Below the pieces are notes generated by a model that saw only the letters and a list, made by a program, of their open reading frames with translations, was not told the origin of the DNA and did no database searches. From an uncultured cyanobacterium (GTDB lineage: Bacteria; Cyanobacteriota; Cyanobacteriia; PCC-9006; JAAUQQ01), in the NCBI GenBank assembly GCA_963718615.1, contig OY970368.1, positions 3,808,001 to 3,872,000 on the forward strand: a stretch of 64,000 bases of DNA. Direction: 5' to 3'. The translations under genes were made by a program, and so were the position numbers. Of the stretch, positions 37,563-52,414 are shown piece after piece. How positions within the stretch are numbered: position 1 is the stretch's first letter; every line of letters begins with the position of its first letter.

Positions 37563-37786
37563 TCAGACCTCCACCTCTTATAGCAGCAAAATTATAAGCG
37601 ATTTACTTTGAGGCTGGGGTAGTCAACTTAACAGCACTTGATTCTGATTGCCTCACAGATAGCTCTCGTCTGCGCCTTCACCAGTAACCGAAGCCGCATA
37701 ACGGCCCCGTTCACCCGCCGCAGAAGCCTTGCGGTCTTAACGGCCAACTTAATACGGTCGGCGTGCCACGCAATTATGGGGGGACA

Positions 37787-38079
37787 GGGGAGAAGAAACA
37801 GGAAGAGACGACTATGCATTGGACGACACAGAGGATGTCTACTAACATACCGAATCGCTCATCCCTCTCCCATGCGCGAATTTGACAGAAGCGCATAAAG
37901 TCAAAAAAGGAGAGCATCTGCCAGCTTGTCGGGACGACTATGCAACGTTAGTCAGAAGATGACTACTAACCTATCGAATTGCCCGTCCAGCCAATCCAAT
38001 CGCATACCAACGAATCCTCAGGGAGCAGGGAAAGACCCTTGACCTAATCTCTTCGCTTTGCGTGGGTGGCAGACTCTCC
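37787..38079 (+). ncRNA. Predicted bridge/seek RNA with two target-binding loops and one donor-binding loop (copy 1)
   Basis: Repeated module GACGACTA-guide-hairpin-CTAAC at 37807 and 37933; closing stems GGGAGA/TCTCCC and GGAGAG..TCTGCCA/TGGCAGACTCTCC; donor guide CTCAGGG 38017-38023. Confidence 0.7.
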
Positions 38080-38108
38080 ATCCAACAAAATACCCCCAAT
38101 CTAACACA

Positions 38109-38543
38109 ATGAAACTCAACCTCAGCACAACCGTTTATGCTGCCTATATCGGCATTGATTGGGCAGACCGCAAACATGATATTGCTCTCTACGATTGCCA
38201 GAATGAGATCTGGGCACAATCCACTATTCAGGCCACCCCTCAGGCGGAGGAAATTGGCAAGCAACGTTGGGTCCATTGGCGTTGGTCTTGTCCTATCTTT
38301 CTGAGGCAAATTTTTGTCGAGTGGGTTACCCATGCTCGGTCTCGTTCGGTCTGGTCACAGGCATTTTATCAACAACAACGACTGGCGGGTAAATCCCATC
38401 AAAAGGCTATTCGTGCTTTGGCATATAAAGGGGGTCAGATTCTTTGGCGATGTTGGCAGGATAGGACTCCTTATGATGAGGAAAAGTATCTCGCTGCTCT
38501 CCGGCGCAAAAACTCTCCTTTGGTCGCTCTTTTACCGGATTAG
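38109..38543 (+). pseudogene. IS110 transposase with large in-frame internal deletion (144 aa)
   Basis: N-terminal YIGIDWADRKHD (first DEDD Asp) fused to C-terminal W.HWR.SC..FLRQ...A.RALA.K...ILWRCW. Confidence 0.88.
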
Positions 38544-38746
38544 TTCTCTATCTTGTTGCTCGATTGAACTGCTTTAGGTTTTGAACCAATCGAATACAAA
38601 AAATACGCAGATGGCTCTGATAGACCAGTTCGGCTGAGACTCAAAACTGACTATTAGGGGGTTTGCGCTGGCTTCAATTCGCTCAGATATTACATCAGAG
38701 TTATTTTTGATATTCTCTATTGACCCCGTCCGCCTCAAGGCCTATG

Positions 38747-39862
38747 TTAGGCACGGGGCTGTTGTTGTGTGGTGCAGTGTATGCCACCACCGCCAGCAGC
38801 GATCGCATCAATATTTAGCTGGACAACATCGCGATCAGGGAATAGATCTTGCAAAGTCGCTTTTGCTTTTTCATCAGCGATGACATTGCCAAACTCTGGC
38901 GCGATGACAGCGCCATTGACCACATAGAAATTGATATAACCTGCGGCAAAATCAGCACTTTTAAACTTGGGACGAATGCTGGTGGGACTTTCAAGGACAG
39001 CCACTTCTAGTTTATGACCATCCGCATCCGTCTCAGACCGCAGAATCTCTAGGTGCTTTTGAGTAACAGCATGGTCGAACGAGGCTGGATCGGGATCATA
39101 TCCAGCAATGACAGTCCCTGGACGCGCAAAGCGGGAATAAAAGTCAGTATGACCATCTGTAATATCTTGCCCTCGGATACCAGGTAACCAAATGATCTTG
39201 CGGAGTCCCAGAAGTGGCTTGAGTAGTGTTTCACACTCAGCTTTAGCCATTCCAGGATTACGATTTTCGTTGAGGACACAGCTTTCGGTGATGATTGCTG
39301 TCCCCTTACCATCCACTTCAATCCCACCACCTTCTAGGACTAACTTAGTATTAATAGCCTGAACACTAGATTTCTGAATGACAAATTCAGCGACTTTTGC
39401 ATCATGGTCATGATCTTGCTTCTGACCCCAACCATTGAAGTTAAAATCAATTCCACCTAAATATCCACGACTATCTTTCACAAAAACAGGACCAGTATCA
39501 CGTATCCACAGGTCATCTAAAGCCGAAACAACCATATCTACAGATGAACCGCATTTTCGGACAGCTATCTCGTAATCTTCTTGTCGAACTAGCATGGATA
39601 CAGGCTCATAGCGAGCGATCGCTTTAGCAATAGTTGCTAGATTGTTTTGCACTTCAGAAAGCAACTTTTGTCCCCAAATGGCACGACTTGCACCAAAAGC
39701 CATCCAAGTACGATCATGAGGCTCTGATTCGTCAGGCATCAACCAAGTCGTTTCCTGTGTTCCCACGGCTTCAGAGTCACTACAACCCAAAACATTGTGC
39801 ACGATCATCGCTCCTGAACAACCTGCCATAAATTGAATCAGTGATCGTCGATTCATGATCAA
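38747..39862 (-). CDS. Agmatine/peptidylarginine deiminase family with Tat-like signal; gene cassette
   Basis: WIRDTGP, LEGG, TDGHTD, GYINF, GGGIHCTTQQQP; MNRRSLIQF N-terminus; stop codon inside attC R''. Confidence 0.93.
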   Translation of the reverse strand: MIMNRRSLIQFMAGCSGAMIVHNVLGCSDSEAVGTQETTWLMPDESEPHDRTWMAFGASRAIWGQKLLSEVQNNLATIAKAIARYEPVSMLVRQEDYEIAVRKCGSSVDMVVSALDDLWIRDTGPVFVKDSRGYLGGIDFNFNGWGQKQDHDHDAKVAEFVIQKSSVQAINTKLVLEGGGIEVDGKGTAIITESCVLNENRNPGMAKAECETLLKPLLGLRKIIWLPGIRGQDITDGHTDFYSRFARPGTVIAGYDPDPASFDHAVTQKHLEILRSETDADGHKLEVAVLESPTSIRPKFKSADFAAGYINFYVVNGAVIAPEFGNVIADEKAKATLQDLFPDRDVVQLNIDAIAAGGGGIHCTTQQQPRA

Positions 39863-44896: not shown

Positions 44897-45019
44897 CAGT
44901 CAATGTTACCCTCTGTCGGGAGTTAAGCCTAACGTTGCCCCTCACCCGCCGCCAATCACACCTGCATCAAACCGATCAATTTTCGGCGGTCGGTGTGCAT
45001 GGGCGTTTATGGGGGGACG

Positions 45020-45313
45020 GGGGAGAAGAAACAGGAAGAGACGACTATGCATTGGACGACACAGAGGATGTCTACTAACATACCGAATCGCTCATCCCTC
45101 TCCCATTCGCGAATTTGACAGAACCGCATAAAGTCAAGAAAGGAGAGAATCTGCCAGCTAGTCGGGACGACTATGCAGCGCCAGTCAGAAGATGACTACT
45201 AACATATCGAATCGCCCGTCCAGCCAATCCAATCGCGTACCGACGAATCCTCAGGGAGTAGGGAAAGACTCTTTCCATAATCTCTTCGCTTTGCGAGCGG
45301 GGGCAGACTCTCC
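45020..45313 (+). ncRNA. Predicted bridge/seek RNA with two target-binding loops and one donor-binding loop (copy 2)
   Basis: Guides TGCATTG/CTAACAT (45048, 45075), TGCAGCG/CTAACAT (45174, 45199), donor guides CTCAGGG/CCATAAT (45250, 45275). Confidence 0.72.
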
Positions 45314-45342
45314 ATCCAACAAAACACCCTCAATCTAGCACA

Positions 45343-45777
45343 ATGAAACTCAACCTCAGCACAACCGTTTATGCTGCCTATATCGGCATTGATTGGGCAG
45401 ACCGCAAACATGATATTGCTCTCTACGATTGCCAGAATGAGATCTGGGCACAATCCACTATTCAGGCCACCCCTCAGGCGGAGGAAATTGGCAAGCAACG
45501 TTGGGTCCATTGGCGTTGGTCTTGTCCTATCTTTCTGAGGCAAATTTTTGTCGAGTGGGTTACCCATGCTCGGTCTCGTTCGGTCTGGTCACAGGCATTT
45601 TATCAACAACAACGACTGGCGGGTAAATCCCATCAAAAGGCTATTCGTGCTTTGGCGTATAAAGGGGGTCGGATTCTTTGGCGATGTTGGCAGGATAGGA
45701 CTCCTTATGATGAGGAAAAGTATCTCGCTGCTCTCCGGCGCAAAAACTCTCCTTTGGTCGCTCTTTTACCGGATTAG
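45343..45777 (+). pseudogene. IS110 transposase with the same in-frame internal deletion as copy 1
   Basis: 144 aa, one visible substitution (Q/R) versus copy 1. Confidence 0.88.
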
Positions 45778-46363
45778 TTCTCTATCTTGTTGCTCGATTG
45801 AACTGCTTTAGGTTTTGAACCAATCGAATACGAAAAATACGAAGATGGCTCTGATAGCTCAGTTCGGCTGATACTCAAAACTGACTATAAGGGGGTTTGC
45901 GCTGGCTTCAATTCGCTCGGATATTACATCAGAGTTATGTTGTATCTTCTCTATTGACCCCGTCCGGCTCAGGGCCTATGTTAGGCACTACATCTACAAA
46001 CAACTGACAACATAAGTTAGCCAAGATCTGAAAGCATAGGAGTTCATCATAAGCAGGGGGTTGAGCATGCAGCCAGACTACTTTTTTCTACTTGAAACCT
46101 ATTTTATTTGACTAGCTTCAATTTTCCCTGCTTCTGTCAATTGCCATGCTGACTTTGAACCCCTAAGTTCTGGTACTCTTTCCAGAAGCCCATTTGTTAG
46201 ACGACAATAGCATTGGCGGCTGCTCGACATTTCCTGGCGGGAGTTGTCGCGAAAGCGTGGCTTGGATCGTGAGACAGACGTGAGACTTTGACAGCTCACT
46301 GGCGTGGCGATCGACAAAAAAAGACACTCATAGGGTCCCCCTGGAAAGAAAGGACTCTAACGA

Positions 46364-48154
46364 GTGTCGAGAGTAATAATGTATCAACAGCGAGTGTACA
46401 TGAATGCAAAGGAGCATGGCCTGTCGCAGCAAGATGCGGCAGCGGTGGCGGAATTTTCGGTGCGAACCGCGCAACGAATGGATGCCAACGAGTGGCAGCA
46501 GGGGAGTGGAGAGGGCACCGGGGTGCGGACCCGGCCAGATCCACTCAACGGTCTTTGGGAAGCCGAACTAGAGGCGATGCTGCGAGCTGAGCCAAGACTG
46601 AAACCGACGACGTTATTTGAGCATTTGCAGGACAAATATCCGGGTCAATATCCGCAAGTGCTCAGGACGCTTCAGCGGCGAGTGAGAACCTGGAAAGCAC
46701 TGTATGGTCCAGCTCCCGAGGTGATGTTTGAGCTGCGTCACGAGCCGGGGGTGCAAGGATTTTCCGACTTCACCGAACTCAAAGGGACGGTGGTGACGAT
46801 AAATGGAAAGCCCTATGAGCACTTGATTTATCACTACCGCTTGGGCTACAGCGGCTGGTCCTACGCGGAGTTAATCGAGGGGGGTGAAAGCTTTGTCGCC
46901 CTATCCGAAGGATTGCAGAATGCCCTGTTTGCCTGCGGCGGGGCTCCAAAGCAGCATCGCACCGATAGCCTGAGTGCGGCCTATCGAAATCTGGGTGGGA
47001 AGAAGACCAAACCGCTGACGCGCTTGTATGACGACCTGTGTGAGCACTATCGGTTGCAACCGACGCGAAACAACCGGGGAATCGCCCACGAGAACGGTTC
47101 TATTGAAGGCCCCCACGGTCATCTGAAGAACCGCATTGTCCAAGCGATGTACCTGCGCGGCAGCACCGACTTCGCTAGCGTCAGCGACTATCAAGACCTG
47201 CTCAATGACTGTGTGGCCAAGCTCAATGCCCAGCATCAGGATAAGTATGAGCATGAGAAAGCGCATCTCCAGGCGTTGCCCAAATACCGGGCTGCGGACT
47301 ACGAACTCCTCACCGCCAAGGTGAGCAGCAACAGCACGATTGATATCCGCTGCATGCTCTACAGCGTGCCGTCTCGCTTAATTGGCCGGTCCCTGGAAGT
47401 GCATCTGCACCACAACCGCCTGATGGGCTACCTCGAAGGCCATGAAGTGTTCAGGTTGAAACGGATTCGTTCTACTGACAAGGACAAGCGGCGCGCCCGC
47501 TCGGTGGACTATCACCATGTCATCGAAGGGTTGCGCAAAAAGCCCTTGGCCTTCCTCCACAGCACCTGGCGAGAGGACCTCCTGCCCAATGAGCGCTATC
47601 ACCAACTCTGGAAACAGCTCCAGGCTGGCTTTGAGCTTGATTCTGCCGCCGTGCTCATGGTCGAAGCCCTCTATATTGCGGCGACCCAAAACAAGGAAGC
47701 GGCGGTCGCTGACTACCTCTTCCCAGAGATTGAGGCCAAAACCCTCACCCTCTCAAGGCTCAGACTCCATTTTCAGTTGCTCACCAAACTCGAATTCCCC
47801 ACCGTGAATGTCCAACAACATGACCTCAACGACTACGATGCCCTTCTGTTCACCCACAGCAGCGTCATCCCAGATGCAGAACCAGAGCTCGTCTCAACCG
47901 GAGCTGAGCCCTTACCAAAGCCTCAGCGCTCAGCTCAAGCACCTGCGCTTATCCCATATGCTCAACCACTGGGAGACCTTGGAGCAGCAAGCCATGCGAG
48001 AGACCTGGTCCTACGCGCAATTTCTCTTGGCCCTGTGCCAACTCGAAACAGACCGCCGCAAGGCTTTGCGCCTCCAAAGAGCCATCACCGAAGCTCAACT
48101 GCCCAACGCCAAAACGGTTTCCAATTTCGATTGGACACACCTGCCCCTGGTTAA
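46364..48154 (+). CDS. istA: IS21 transposase IstA
   Basis: SDFT, HRTDSL, HENGSIE DDE triad; YSVPSRLIG. Confidence 0.95.
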   Translation: MSRVIMYQQRVYMNAKEHGLSQQDAAAVAEFSVRTAQRMDANEWQQGSGEGTGVRTRPDPLNGLWEAELEAMLRAEPRLKPTTLFEHLQDKYPGQYPQVLRTLQRRVRTWKALYGPAPEVMFELRHEPGVQGFSDFTELKGTVVTINGKPYEHLIYHYRLGYSGWSYAELIEGGESFVALSEGLQNALFACGGAPKQHRTDSLSAAYRNLGGKKTKPLTRLYDDLCEHYRLQPTRNNRGIAHENGSIEGPHGHLKNRIVQAMYLRGSTDFASVSDYQDLLNDCVAKLNAQHQDKYEHEKAHLQALPKYRAADYELLTAKVSSNSTIDIRCMLYSVPSRLIGRSLEVHLHHNRLMGYLEGHEVFRLKRIRSTDKDKRRARSVDYHHVIEGLRKKPLAFLHSTWREDLLPNERYHQLWKQLQAGFELDSAAVLMVEALYIAATQNKEAAVADYLFPEIEAKTLTLSRLRLHFQLLTKLEFPTVNVQQHDLNDYDALLFTHSSVIPDAEPELVSTGAEPLPKPQRSAQAPALIPYAQPLGDLGAASHARDLVLRAISLGPVPTRNRPPQGFAPPKSHHRSSTAQRQNGFQFRLDTPAPG

Positions 48155-48722
48155 CCCTCTCCCGATTCAAAAACTCGCCACTGAACCCCAGTGGATTGAT
48201 GACGCCCAAAACTGTCTCTTCTTCGGACCTTCTGGGGTCGGCAAAACCCATCTGGCCGCTGGCATCGCTCGTGCCGCCCTGGAAGCGGGCAAGCGCGTCA
48301 AATTCTTCTGTGCCACCACCCTGGTGCAGTATCTCCAAAAAGAAAAGCTTCATCTCCAGCTTCAGCCTGCCCTGAAAAAGCTCGACCGCTTTGACCTCGT
48401 GATCATTGATGACCTCGGCTATGTCCAAAAATCCGAGGCAGAAACCTCCGTTCTCTTTGAACTCATTGCCTATCGCTATGAGCGCAAAAGCATCATGGTC
48501 ACTGCCAATCAGCCGTTCAGTGAGTGGAACTCCATCTTTGGTGATTCCATGATGACCGTCGCCGCCGTTGACCGCCTCATTCACCATGCGGTCATTCTCG
48601 AAATCAAGGCGGACAGTTTTCGTAAACGCTCCGCTCACCAGCGCTCTGAGAACTTGAAGGCACTCCCGGCAAAATCCTCTGAATCTGACTCCCAAACATC
48701 GACACACCAGAAGCGATCTTAG
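47808..48722 (+). CDS. istB: IS21 helper ATPase IstB
   Basis: GPSGVGKTHLA, IIDDLGY, DRLIHHA. Confidence 0.96.
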   Translation: MSNNMTSTTTMPFCSPTAASSQMQNQSSSQPELSPYQSLSAQLKHLRLSHMLNHWETLEQQAMRETWSYAQFLLALCQLETDRRKALRLQRAITEAQLPNAKTVSNFDWTHLPLVNPLPIQKLATEPQWIDDAQNCLFFGPSGVGKTHLAAGIARAALEAGKRVKFFCATTLVQYLQKEKLHLQLQPALKKLDRFDLVIIDDLGYVQKSEAETSVLFELIAYRYERKSIMVTANQPFSEWNSIFGDSMMTVAAVDRLIHHAVILEIKADSFRKRSAHQRSENLKALPAKSSESDSQTSTHQKRS

Positions 48723-50283
48723 ATTGTCGTCTTGACCTGAGATTGCCGCTTCTCATTTCCTTTTGCCAATTCAGTGGGCTCCCCGCCTTCTAATTGTCGC
48801 GACAGGCAAATGTCTTGACACTTGATACCCATTATCTCTAAGTTTATAAAATTCGACCTTAACCAGATTCTCGGATCTGATGCCTGTAATGTCTCTTGCT
48901 TGTTGGTTAGTAATTGTTAGATTTGATCGAAGAAAACTGAGAATCGCCTCTGCTGGTACTGCAAGAGGTATATGAGGAAGGGTAACTTTGACATAGTTTC
49001 CATCCTCAGTGATCTCAGGCGATTTCAGTCCCCACTCTTTCATCTTTTGAAAGGTAGTGTTGAGCCCTTCGCCTAAATCCTTGTTCGGAGCCTCTTTGTA
49101 TCTATTAAGAGTTCTAACAATTTTGGCATTTCTTGCATAACGTGCATCCAATATGTTTTCAATAGTAACGTATCCGGGAAGACGTCCTGGACTTAGAATC
49201 TCAATTCTATTGTTATATATTAAAATTCGAGTATCATCTGATATTGAATAATCTCGATGAATGATTGAATTCACAATTACTTCCCATACTGCTTCGGGAG
49301 GATAATTAAGGTTCTTAAGACCGTCGGAAGTCCAGACTTTCACGGATGACATTATGCTTTCGACGGCAGTGACAGTATCCTTGATCAGACTGTAGAGCGG
49401 ACCTTCAACCGAAACCTGCTCTGCTAAATGATCGCGCTCAGGATCATCTTCTTTTGTTTCATACCTGGTAATTTTTACTGCACATTTTCTAGGCACAACT
49501 GCACTAGGACAGGGATGAAATAATAGTGCTGCTGCTACCCTCACTTCCCAGGTTTTGTAATCGAATAAGTTTTGATTTATGCAAAATTCTAAAGGATCAG
49601 TTTTAGGGGAATAATCACCTAAAAAGGAGGTCAACTCCTCAGACTCCGCAACTTGCTCAGCAGGAATATCCTTGATTAACTGATCTTCAAAGGATGTAGC
49701 ACCCTTTGCAAATGACAGTTGCGTAATTCTTTCTGGATCTTTGACAGGTAGGGATTGAGCACCCTGTCTTTGATAGACTGTTCCATCAGCAGTTTTGTGG
49801 ACTTCGGAACTTTTCTCAATCATTATCCTTAAGATATATCCGGATTTGCCTTCACACCTCAATATTTCATATCTCAAATCCAATGGAGGGGTGATGTCGA
49901 AAATTGCCTGCAAATGGCTGTTCAATTCTTCGATTTTTGATACCCCTTGCCATCTTCTTCCTGGATCAGTCTCATCTTCATCATCTGCGATACCAATAAT
50001 AAGCTCTCCGCCATCTGCATTTGCAAAAGCTACGGCTGCCTTTTGTACTTTCGCTCCCTTAATTTGAGCAGCTTTTCTGTCAAAAAAATGAGATTCTTCT
50101 CTTATTGAGAATTCATCAGCTTCAAATGAGGTAATTGTTTTGGTATTCATGTTTCCCGTGCTGAATTCAATTGTAATTACTAAAATTTTATTCGAATATT
50201 TCTTCGTTTTATGAGCTTCCTTGTTACATCTTGAAGATTAGCAGATAGCTTTTTGCAGATTCTGTATGTCTATGAACGAAGCT

Positions 50284-51644: not shown

Positions 51645-52414
51645 ATGCAAACCCAGCCCCCCAAGCTTCTAGATCAAGTCCGTGTGGCCCTACGACTCAA
51701 GCACTATTCCTGCAAAACAGAGCAAACTTACGTTCAGTGGATTCGGCGTTACATTCTGTTTCACAACAAGCGCCATCCCAAGGACATGGGCGTGACCGAA
51801 GTGGAAGCCTTCTTGACCCATCTCGCGGTTCAAGAACGGGTTGCTGCCTGCACGCAAAACGTTGCCTTTAGCGCCTTGCTCTTCCTCTATCGTGAAATTC
51901 TTCAACAACCCTTCGAAAATGTTCAGGCTCTCCGAGCAAAGCCTTCGCGCTATCTACCTACGGTACTGACTCCCGAAGAAGTCCGCCAAATCATGCGACA
52001 TCTTTCCGGTGAATGTCGCCTCGTGATTCAAATTCTCTACGGAAGTGGATTGCGGATTAGTGAAGCACTTCGACTCAGAGTTAAAGACGTAGATTTTGGT
52101 CAGCACCAGATTGTTGTGCGAGATTCTAAGGGGCAAAAGGGCCGGGTAACACCGCTGCCCGATCGCATCATCAAGCCTCGTGCCCTTCAGGATGCCGTTG
52201 GTTCTGCTGGTATTCACAAGAAAGTCAGTTGCCACACCTTCCGCCACAGCTTCGCCACCCACCTGCTGCATTGATTTGTTTTTATGGGGCATACGACATC
52301 CGCACCGTCCAAGAACTGTTGGGCCACAAAGATGTTAAGACAACCATGATCTACACCCATGTCCTCAATCGCGGCGGACGAGGCGATCGCAGCCCGCTAG
52401 ACCATAATTTTTAG
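51645..52414 (+). pseudogene. intI: Integron integrase with internal deletion and frameshift
   Basis: [48 protein letters not shown]; [25 protein letters not shown]...SPLD in another frame; divergent from cassettes. Confidence 0.93.

Follow-up and report, generated by a model that had tools for sequence, protein, structure and literature searches.

A candidate three-loop bridge RNA in the left end of a non-autonomous IS110-family element inserted at an attC site

The loop at 45244-45288 of the window (the whole stretch of 64,000 nucleotides analysed here, from an uncultured cyanobacterium) carries copies of both ends of the mobile element in which it lies. CTCAGGG at 45250-45256 is a 7/7 sense copy of the right-end 7-mer at 45968-45974, and the reverse complement of CCATAAT at 45275-45281 agrees at 7/7 with AT followed by the left end TATGG (45008-45012). 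Both matches, in this order and within 45 nt, were found in only 6 of 5000 dinucleotide-preserving shuffles of 45028-45342. The first-pass annotation, which had described this as the donor loop of a bridge RNA, was confirmed in its observation: the match is right and far from chance. Since the guides correspond to the ends and continue to do so in relatives whose sequence has changed, the predicted donor loop is well supported. We consider it likely, judging from the sequence, that 45008-45342, as the left end of a non-autonomous IS110-family element, encodes a three-loop bridge RNA, which would act through the circle, the pairing and the exchange proposed below.

The element, hereafter copy 2, and its relative in the window have the following parts.

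45008-45979, + strand: copy 2, a non-autonomous IS110-family element of 972 bp, delimited by comparison with the full-length copy
45008-45342, + strand: left end of copy 2, 335 nt, the putative bridge-RNA-encoding region, recognised by its identity to the full-length copy
45015-45022, + strand: left subterminal inverted repeat GGACGGGG, with its partner CCCCGTCC at 45958-45965
45343-45777, + strand: remnant transposase frame of 144 aa, an open reading frame without a family in the Pfam search
45954-45979, + strand: right end, with a -35-like TTGACC (45954-45959), CCCCGTCC (45958-45965), CTCAGGG (45968-45974), CCT (45975-45977) and AT (45978-45979)
37775-38755, + strand: copy 1, the same deletion derivative in another attC-like site, with the flanks ...GTGCCACGCA-AT and GTTAGGC

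Copy 2 starts with TATGGGGGG at 45008, directly after TT (45006-45007), and ends with ...CTCAGGGCCTAT, followed by GTTAGGC (45980-45986). It equals the full-length copy minus 831 bp, deleted in frame with a breakpoint near 45479, so that the transposase is lost. Since its protein is merely a 144-aa remnant without a family, copy 2 is a non-autonomous derivative. The genome contains only one full-length copy (1803 bp, G000:C1:2245200-2247002), and the left ends of the two show 0 mismatches over 335 nt. A metagenome contig continues beyond 45480 with full-length-type sequence.

The protein of the full-length copy (421 aa) matched PF01548 (96 bits), PF02371 (59 bits) and NF033542, the 'IS110 family RNA-guided transposase' (176 bits, cut-off 140). 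It is only distantly related to IS621, with which it aligned (8wt6) at E = 3e-10. The DEDD and Ser positions are in place: in our reading of the alignment, GID, LEQ, DPID and ESG correspond to D11, E60, D102/D105 and the ESG serine of IS621. The full-length copy thus has the DEDD RuvC-like domain and the Tnp domain with the catalytic Ser that mark the IS110 family.

A third carrier of the same deletion, 'A', lies at C1:4716685-4717585. Copies 1, 2 and 'A' have three different flanks, and the mini-element has therefore moved, with the recombinase presumably supplied in trans. Copy 1 is 96% identical and its guides have decayed. The right-end 7-mer has become CTCAAGG and no longer equals the guide CTCAGGG, three substitutions lie close together in the right donor guide (ACCTAAT instead of CCATAAT), and loop 2 has CTAACCT as its right guide. 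From these changes copy 1 looks immobilised. The GACCTAAT variant of copy 1 is also present in an unrelated locus, L065.

Upstream of the ATG at 45343 there are three colinear modules, two target loops and the donor loop. Each is built as ACGA(C/A), 2 nt, a 7-nt left guide, 3 nt, a hairpin of 4-5 bp, 2 nt, a 7-nt right guide, 2 nt and (U)UCG.

45040-45093, + strand: target loop 1, with left guide UGCAUUG (TGCATTG, 45048-45054), tail GAC (45055-45057), hairpin (45058-45072), right guide CUAACAU (CTAACAT, 45075-45081) and next base A (45082)
45115-45137, + strand: small hairpin between the target loops (TTGAC...GTCAA), seen only in the minimum-free-energy fold
45166-45217, + strand: target loop 2, with left guide UGCAGCG (TGCAGCG, 45174-45180), tail CCA (45181-45183), hairpin (45184-45196), right guide CUAACAU (CTAACAT, 45199-45205) and next base A (45206)
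45244-45288, + strand: donor-binding loop, assigned from its end matches and from relatives, with basal stem CGAA (45244-45247) and TTCG (45285-45288), left guide CUCAGGG (CTCAGGG, 45250-45256), unmatched tail AGU (AGT, 45257-45259), hairpin AGGG-AAAGA-CTCT (45260-45272), right guide CCAUAAU (CCATAAT, 45275-45281) and next base C (45282)

To compare these modules we used 89 loci: 9 came from 4 of the phylum's 401 genomes, and 80, at 46-89% protein identity, from named genome records. Of these 89 loci, 81 had the transposase motif (8 were dropped, the peptide motif having missed the gene), 73 of them had a donor loop and 57 also a right end, which left 51 distinct elements. The modules and ends were picked by our own regular expressions.

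The left donor guide equals the right-end 7-mer at 7/7 positions in 47 of the 51 elements and at 6/7 in 3. The remaining one, L076, was mis-detected by the regular expression and matches at 6/7 by reading; L029 and L055 are, like L076, carriers of a mismatch between guide and end. CTCAGGG stands on both sides in 41/51. Variants changed on both sides together were CTCAGAG (three elements), CTCAGGA, CTCAGTT and CTCAGAT (one each), and reading of L080 added a further CTCAGAT on both sides. Since the donor 7-mer is nearly invariant, this covariation rests on about seven elements, in perhaps four independent changes, kin among the elements not being independent. The right donor guide was exact in 22/29 and had at most one mismatch in 28/29; for the right target guide the figures were 17/29 and 28/29 distinct cases. 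In distant relatives whole motifs switch together (CCGCUUC with GAAGCGG, CUAUA with TATAG). The guides thus covary both with the target flanks and with the element's own ends.

Some loops are interrupted. In L022 (about 1340-1400, oriented) and L054 the left donor guide is split by an extra ~25 nt (TTCT...CAGGG), and the right end of L022 is still CCTCAGGG despite the split. The split guide of L022 may be an extra hairpin or a decayed copy. In L042 an insertion of ~110 nt interrupts target loop 1 just past the right guide.

For the donor loop we named a structure and counted its pairs on 58 donor loops. The basal stem was paired in every cell (100%), 5 rows carried a double change in it from AU to CG, and all 4 hairpin pairs showed double changes. 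The covariation score was 0.278 against 0.131 for shuffles, and 0/500 shuffles reached it. The stems of the named structure are therefore conserved. RNAalifold predicted no pairs from a MAFFT alignment of the same 58 loops. The single-sequence fold was no better than shuffles (z = -0.78) and buried the CC of CCAUAAU in a stem. Rfam gave no family at gathering score in the window, and with E up to 10 only a chance miRNA hit in 44990-45360.

Insertion of copy 2 has split the R''-L'' arm of an attC site, with TT to the left and GTTAGGC to the right, so that the flanks read GCCTAAC (44927-44933) ... GGTCGGTGTGCATGGGCG-TT, element, GTTAGGC.

44927-44933, no strand assigned: distal inverted heptamer of attC, reading GCCTAAC on the + strand, with its partner GTTAGGC at 45980-45986
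44985-45007, + strand: attC arm abutting the element, on the side of the extra-helical bases (R''-L''), with TGCATGG (44996-45002), GCG (45003-45005) and TT (45006-45007)
45980-45986, + strand: R'' box of the attC site, GTTAGGC, whose GTTAG is read by CTAACAT

The earlier reading of this site as attC, with its L'' and R'' labels, was borne out by the inverted boxes GCCTAAC...GTTAGGC, by empty homologues, by bulges on one arm and by the integron context. Uninterrupted homologous sites in the genome read ...GTGCATGG(G/T)CG-TT-GTTAG..., and in metagenome contigs the match to the arm ends at 45007 and GTTAG... follows directly, as in an empty site. The comparison of empty with filled alleles that had been proposed could thus be made: the empty allele is ...GGGCG-TT-GTTAG in the genome, and the TT-GTTAG form also occurs in metagenome contigs. 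In the folds of empty homologues, such as the site at 5046678, the arm in which the element inserts carries three single-base bulges. Extra-helical bases define the R''-L'' arm of attC (PMC2727003), and the labels fit because the single-base bulges sit on the arm beside the element.

An integron-integrase gene (intI) scored above the cut-off at C1:948656-949594, further degraded intI genes lie near other copies of the element, and every copy in the genome is close to an integron-integrase gene or remnant. A degraded one is present in the window itself (51666-52405, + strand), with three TIGR02249 fragments below the cut-off. Within the window the CACCCGCCG signature marks just two attC-like sites, each of them occupied by the element. 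A strict scan for the R''/R' fold gave 0 attC sites in the window. A relaxed genome-wide scan gave 101 hairpins, mostly spurious in this G+C-rich genome, and was set aside.

The CTAACAT of both target loops is the 7/7 reverse complement of AT plus GTTAG at the right junction. On the left, TGCATGG (44996-45002) is matched at 6/7 by TGCATTG of loop 1 and at 5/7 by TGCAGCG of loop 2 (row L059 has the same flank and loops as copy 2). Of 43 distinct insertions across the family, 29 have a left target guide that agrees with the flank at 6/7 positions or more; random pairing of guides and sites gave 12.4 +/- 2.2 (maximum 18). The distance from the matched 7-mer to TATRG was 2, 3, 4 and 5 nt in 1, 8, 12 and 8 insertions, respectively, which leaves a spacer of 0 to 3 nt once the dinucleotide is removed. 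The RNA tail pairs partly with the target in L053 and L047, pairing reaches 10/10 up to the core in L070, and in the proteobacterial relatives L083, L085 and L097 the left target guide is contiguous and extends up to or into the core.

These facts bear on two statements of the first-pass annotation. It had held that the target mirrors the layout of the donor; the loop size and plan are indeed the same and GTTAG is read by CTAACAT, but the left 7-mer matches only at 6/7 and the gap is not fixed. It had further proposed that the RNA reads the L'' and R'' boxes and ignores the attC spacer. Variable spacing is tolerated, in agreement with this proposal, but there is no obligatory skip, and some relatives pair contiguously. 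In this weaker form it would seem plausible that the RNA reads the two boxes, L'' and R'', but not the spacer.

Two target loops were found in 17 distinct left ends and one in 16, the single-loop forms being the more distant relatives and a few close ones. Among 27 distinct insertions of two-loop elements, the flank was matched at 6/7 or better by loop 1 only in 9, by loop 2 only in 10, by both in 1 and by neither in 7. Loop 1 thus had 10 matches in total against 6.6 +/- 1.6 under shuffled pairing (15/500 as high), and loop 2 had 11 against 6.2 +/- 1.6 (2/500 as high). Copy 2 and the full-length copy occupy sites of the loop-1 type, and the site of copy 1 is matched at 6/7 by copy 1's own loop 2. 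A role of loop 1 as a second donor loop or an excision guide was rejected, because both loops share the right target guide and each has its own cognate insertions. Whether this is a natural bridge RNA with two alternative target loops and one donor loop, addressing two attC L'' classes through set-back guides that tolerate a variable spacer, appears to us evenly balanced. No description of an RNA with two target loops was found in the literature searched, and extra loops or set-back guides may already be on record in supplements of the bridge-RNA papers or in Fig. S12 of bioRxiv 10.64898/2026.10.21.760802.

For elements with CCAUAAU, the dinucleotides at the two junctions were compared across 22 distinct insertions. 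AT stood at the right junction in 22/22, whereas the left junction had TT in 12/22, GT in 8/22 and AT in 2/22. Of the two bases, the first always came from the donor at the right junction and from the target at the left one. The statement that the core is AT consequently holds for the donor dinucleotide, while as a core shared with the targets of these 22 insertions only T is common. The junction pattern fits an exchange of the top strand after T as in IS621, with the product of that strand being inherited. A one-base overlap also fits.

The identity of the bases close to the core may have other reasons than the left donor guide. When the ends were joined by script, TTGACC, 17 nt and TATTAT, a promoter motif, formed across the joint, and the last gap base plus AT overlap its -10 hexamer. 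In addition, the T before AT (donor position 7, T in 22/22) is complementary to the A that follows CUAACAU in 37/37 target loops, a pairing that would fit the handshake of IS621. Because of these promoter and handshake constraints, the gap and AT bases may be fixed even though the left donor guide does not read them. No joint of right end to left end was found in the genome, in the fetched loci or in the four metagenome contig runs searched. In the integrated state the right end and the R'' box form an outward promoter-like TTGACC, 17 nt, TATGTT directed toward the flank (window 45954-45982, + strand).

We considered whether the matches could arise in other ways. A chance resemblance in an ordinary 5' untranslated region agrees with the unexceptional fold energy, and single elements of the match are indeed not rare: 648/5000 shuffles contained a sense 7-mer from the last 14 nt of the right end, and 425/5000 a 7-mer antisense to part of the stretch made up of AT and the first 12 left-end nt. 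However, the ordered pair was seen in just 6 of the 5000, and it is conserved and covaries across 51 distinct elements, which makes chance hardly credible. It is also conceivable that the motifs are subterminal repeats bound as DNA by the transposase, one protein reading the same word at each place, and are not RNA guides. CTCAGGG is strongly conserved down to 46% protein identity, as expected of a protein-binding word, and the paired changes would be expected in that case too. But the same loop architecture carries guides that follow variable target flanks outside the element, and the stems between the guides keep their pairing through double changes. Moreover, the guides have the orientations described for IS621 (PMC11208160), antisense on the right and sense on the left, and the protein falls in NF033542, an 'RNA-guided transposase'. 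We therefore regard protein-binding repeats as very unlikely, and the loops are taken below as candidate RNA guides.

A third alternative concerns the gap between guide and core. At the right end 3 nt (CCT) separate CTCAGGG from AT, and the first-pass annotation had proposed that the left guides skip about 3 nt. In IS621 the left guides are unbroken, the donor guide pairing positions 1-8 and the target guide 1-9 (PMC11208158). It would thus be possible that no real skip exists, and that contiguous left guides of ~10 nt have drifted where mismatches next to the core are tolerated. Consistent with this possibility, L093 and L097 have CTCAGGG plus CGC in both RNA and DNA, and on the target side pairing is contiguous in L070, L083, L085 and L097. 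The gap triplets vary (CGT 14, ACT 12, CCT 10, CAT 5 and others; n = 51), and the first gap base covaries with the RNA tail across the family: it matches in 29/51, where shuffling gives 16.6 and 0/5000 shuffles were as high. The second base, however, matches in only 3/51, below the chance value of 8.5 although donor RNA and DNA co-evolve (1.3% of shuffles were as low). The third is at chance (23/51, expectation 23.2) and is uninformative, being T in the DNA and often U in the RNA. In the CCT group, to which copy 2 belongs, the first base matches in 0/10, and the layout of 7 + 3 + 2 nt therefore holds for copy 2. A rigid contiguous helix, moreover, would leave no room for the differences of up to 3 nt in spacing among natural targets. 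A contiguous left guide of the IS621 type reaching the core was, accordingly, not what we found on the donor side, and we judge that explanation improbable. Since position 1 covaries and position 2 is depleted, the guide is family-wide often 8 nt long with the next base kept unpaired. The skip of about 3 nt thus stands for the donor of this lineage, but not family-wide, where position 1 covaries, nor for the target, where no gap is fixed. By these base matches, the set-back donor guide is real in this lineage, and family-wide in the form of 2 unguided bases.

On the model of IS621, we propose the following course. The element would leave as a circle with the joint ...CTCAGGG-CCT-AT followed by TATGGGG..., and this joint would build the promoter (TTGACC, 17 nt, TATTAT) from which the RNA is transcribed. 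The recombinase would be provided in trans by the single full-length copy. The donor loop would read the element ends, with its left helix set back from the cut by 3 nt (CCT) that are unguided in this lineage. Either target loop would read the R''-L'' arm of attC: CUAACAU would recognise (A/T)T plus GTTAG, the R'' box, and the 7-nt left target guide (UGCAUUG or UGCAGCG) the L'' box, its match lying 0-3 nt from the cut in natural sites. Exchange would take place after the invariant T, and the preceding base would stay with its own left flank.

Much of this resembles IS621 and IS622 (PMC11208160, PMC11208158). There too a DEDD/Ser recombinase gene follows a left end that encodes the RNA, T is invariant as the second base of the core, and the base after the right guide fits the other DNA (the handshake). 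In each internal loop a hairpin is likewise flanked by a left guide in sense and a right guide in antisense orientation (PMC11208160). A promoter is also rebuilt at the circle joint; in the present case the motif forms when the ends are joined by script. The present RNA differs in having three loops, two for the target and one for the donor, against two in IS621/IS622. Its donor 7-mer, unlike that of IS621, ends 3 nt before AT, and its right guides have 7 nt against 4 for the IS621 target.

The layout, a long left end of 335 nt with the guide RNA and a shorter right end, is that of the IS110 group; for the right end, the full-length copy has about 206 nt and L018 about 60 nt. The inverted repeat does not follow this group. 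Section 12 of PMC11208160 gives a subterminal repeat of 2-3 bp for the IS110 group, including IS621/IS622, and 7-17 bp for IS1111, whereas GGACGGGG/CCCCGTCC has about 8 bp (8-9 bp). End-to-end complementarity of at least 7 was found in 11/25 distinct relatives against 4.2 +/- 1.7 with shuffled pairing. By its sequence, the repeat of 8-9 bp would be an IS1111-like trait on an IS110-like layout.

The IS1111-attC group (ISPst6, ISKpn4; PMC11187229, which cites Tetu & Holmes 2008 and Post & Hall 2009) shares with our element a DEDD transposase, subterminal inverted repeats and insertion at one attC end in one orientation, guided by a non-coding RNA. In that group the guide RNA lies downstream of the transposase gene, whereas here all three loops precede the ATG at 45343, and the element accordingly falls outside the group. 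ISPpu10 (bioRxiv 10.64898/2026.03.19.712850) is another IS110 element whose target lies beside a DNA stem-loop, and attC is also hairpin-forming; the target of ISPpu10 is a REP-like intergenic repeat, unlike attC. The position of its target beside a stem-loop suggests that the structure of the target adds to base pairing. Group IIC-attC introns also use RNA pairing to home to attC sites, but are retroelements with a different mechanism (PMC3001079).

Bridge recombinases are under development as programmable tools for DNA insertion, and their design rules come mostly from IS621/IS622. The present family puts two such rules to the test, namely that the left donor guide can sit 2-3 bases off the core and that one RNA may carry two target loops. 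The latter is plausible because split target and donor loops work in trans (bioRxiv 10.1101/2025.05.14.653916). For integron biology, this would be a family of IS110-type rather than IS1111 layout whose members recognise both the L'' and the R'' box of attC and insert within the R''-L'' arm, splitting it. If the proposal is true, it is a natural multi-target bridge recombinase that tolerates a spacer, in which one element addresses two attC L'' sequence classes.

Copy 2 has other mobile DNA as its neighbour. An IS21-type pair lies directly downstream (window 46364-48722, + strand), consisting of a 596-aa protein with a Mu-transposase C-terminal domain and a 304-aa IstB (223 bits). At C1:4674082 the left end of this IS21-type element (in the window from about 46197) likewise borders a fragment of the IS110 element, and the IS21-type element has therefore inserted into another copy elsewhere. 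A Schlafen AlbA_2 / HATPase_c_4 protein of 459 aa (window 48774-50150, - strand) adjoins the cluster of mobile elements.
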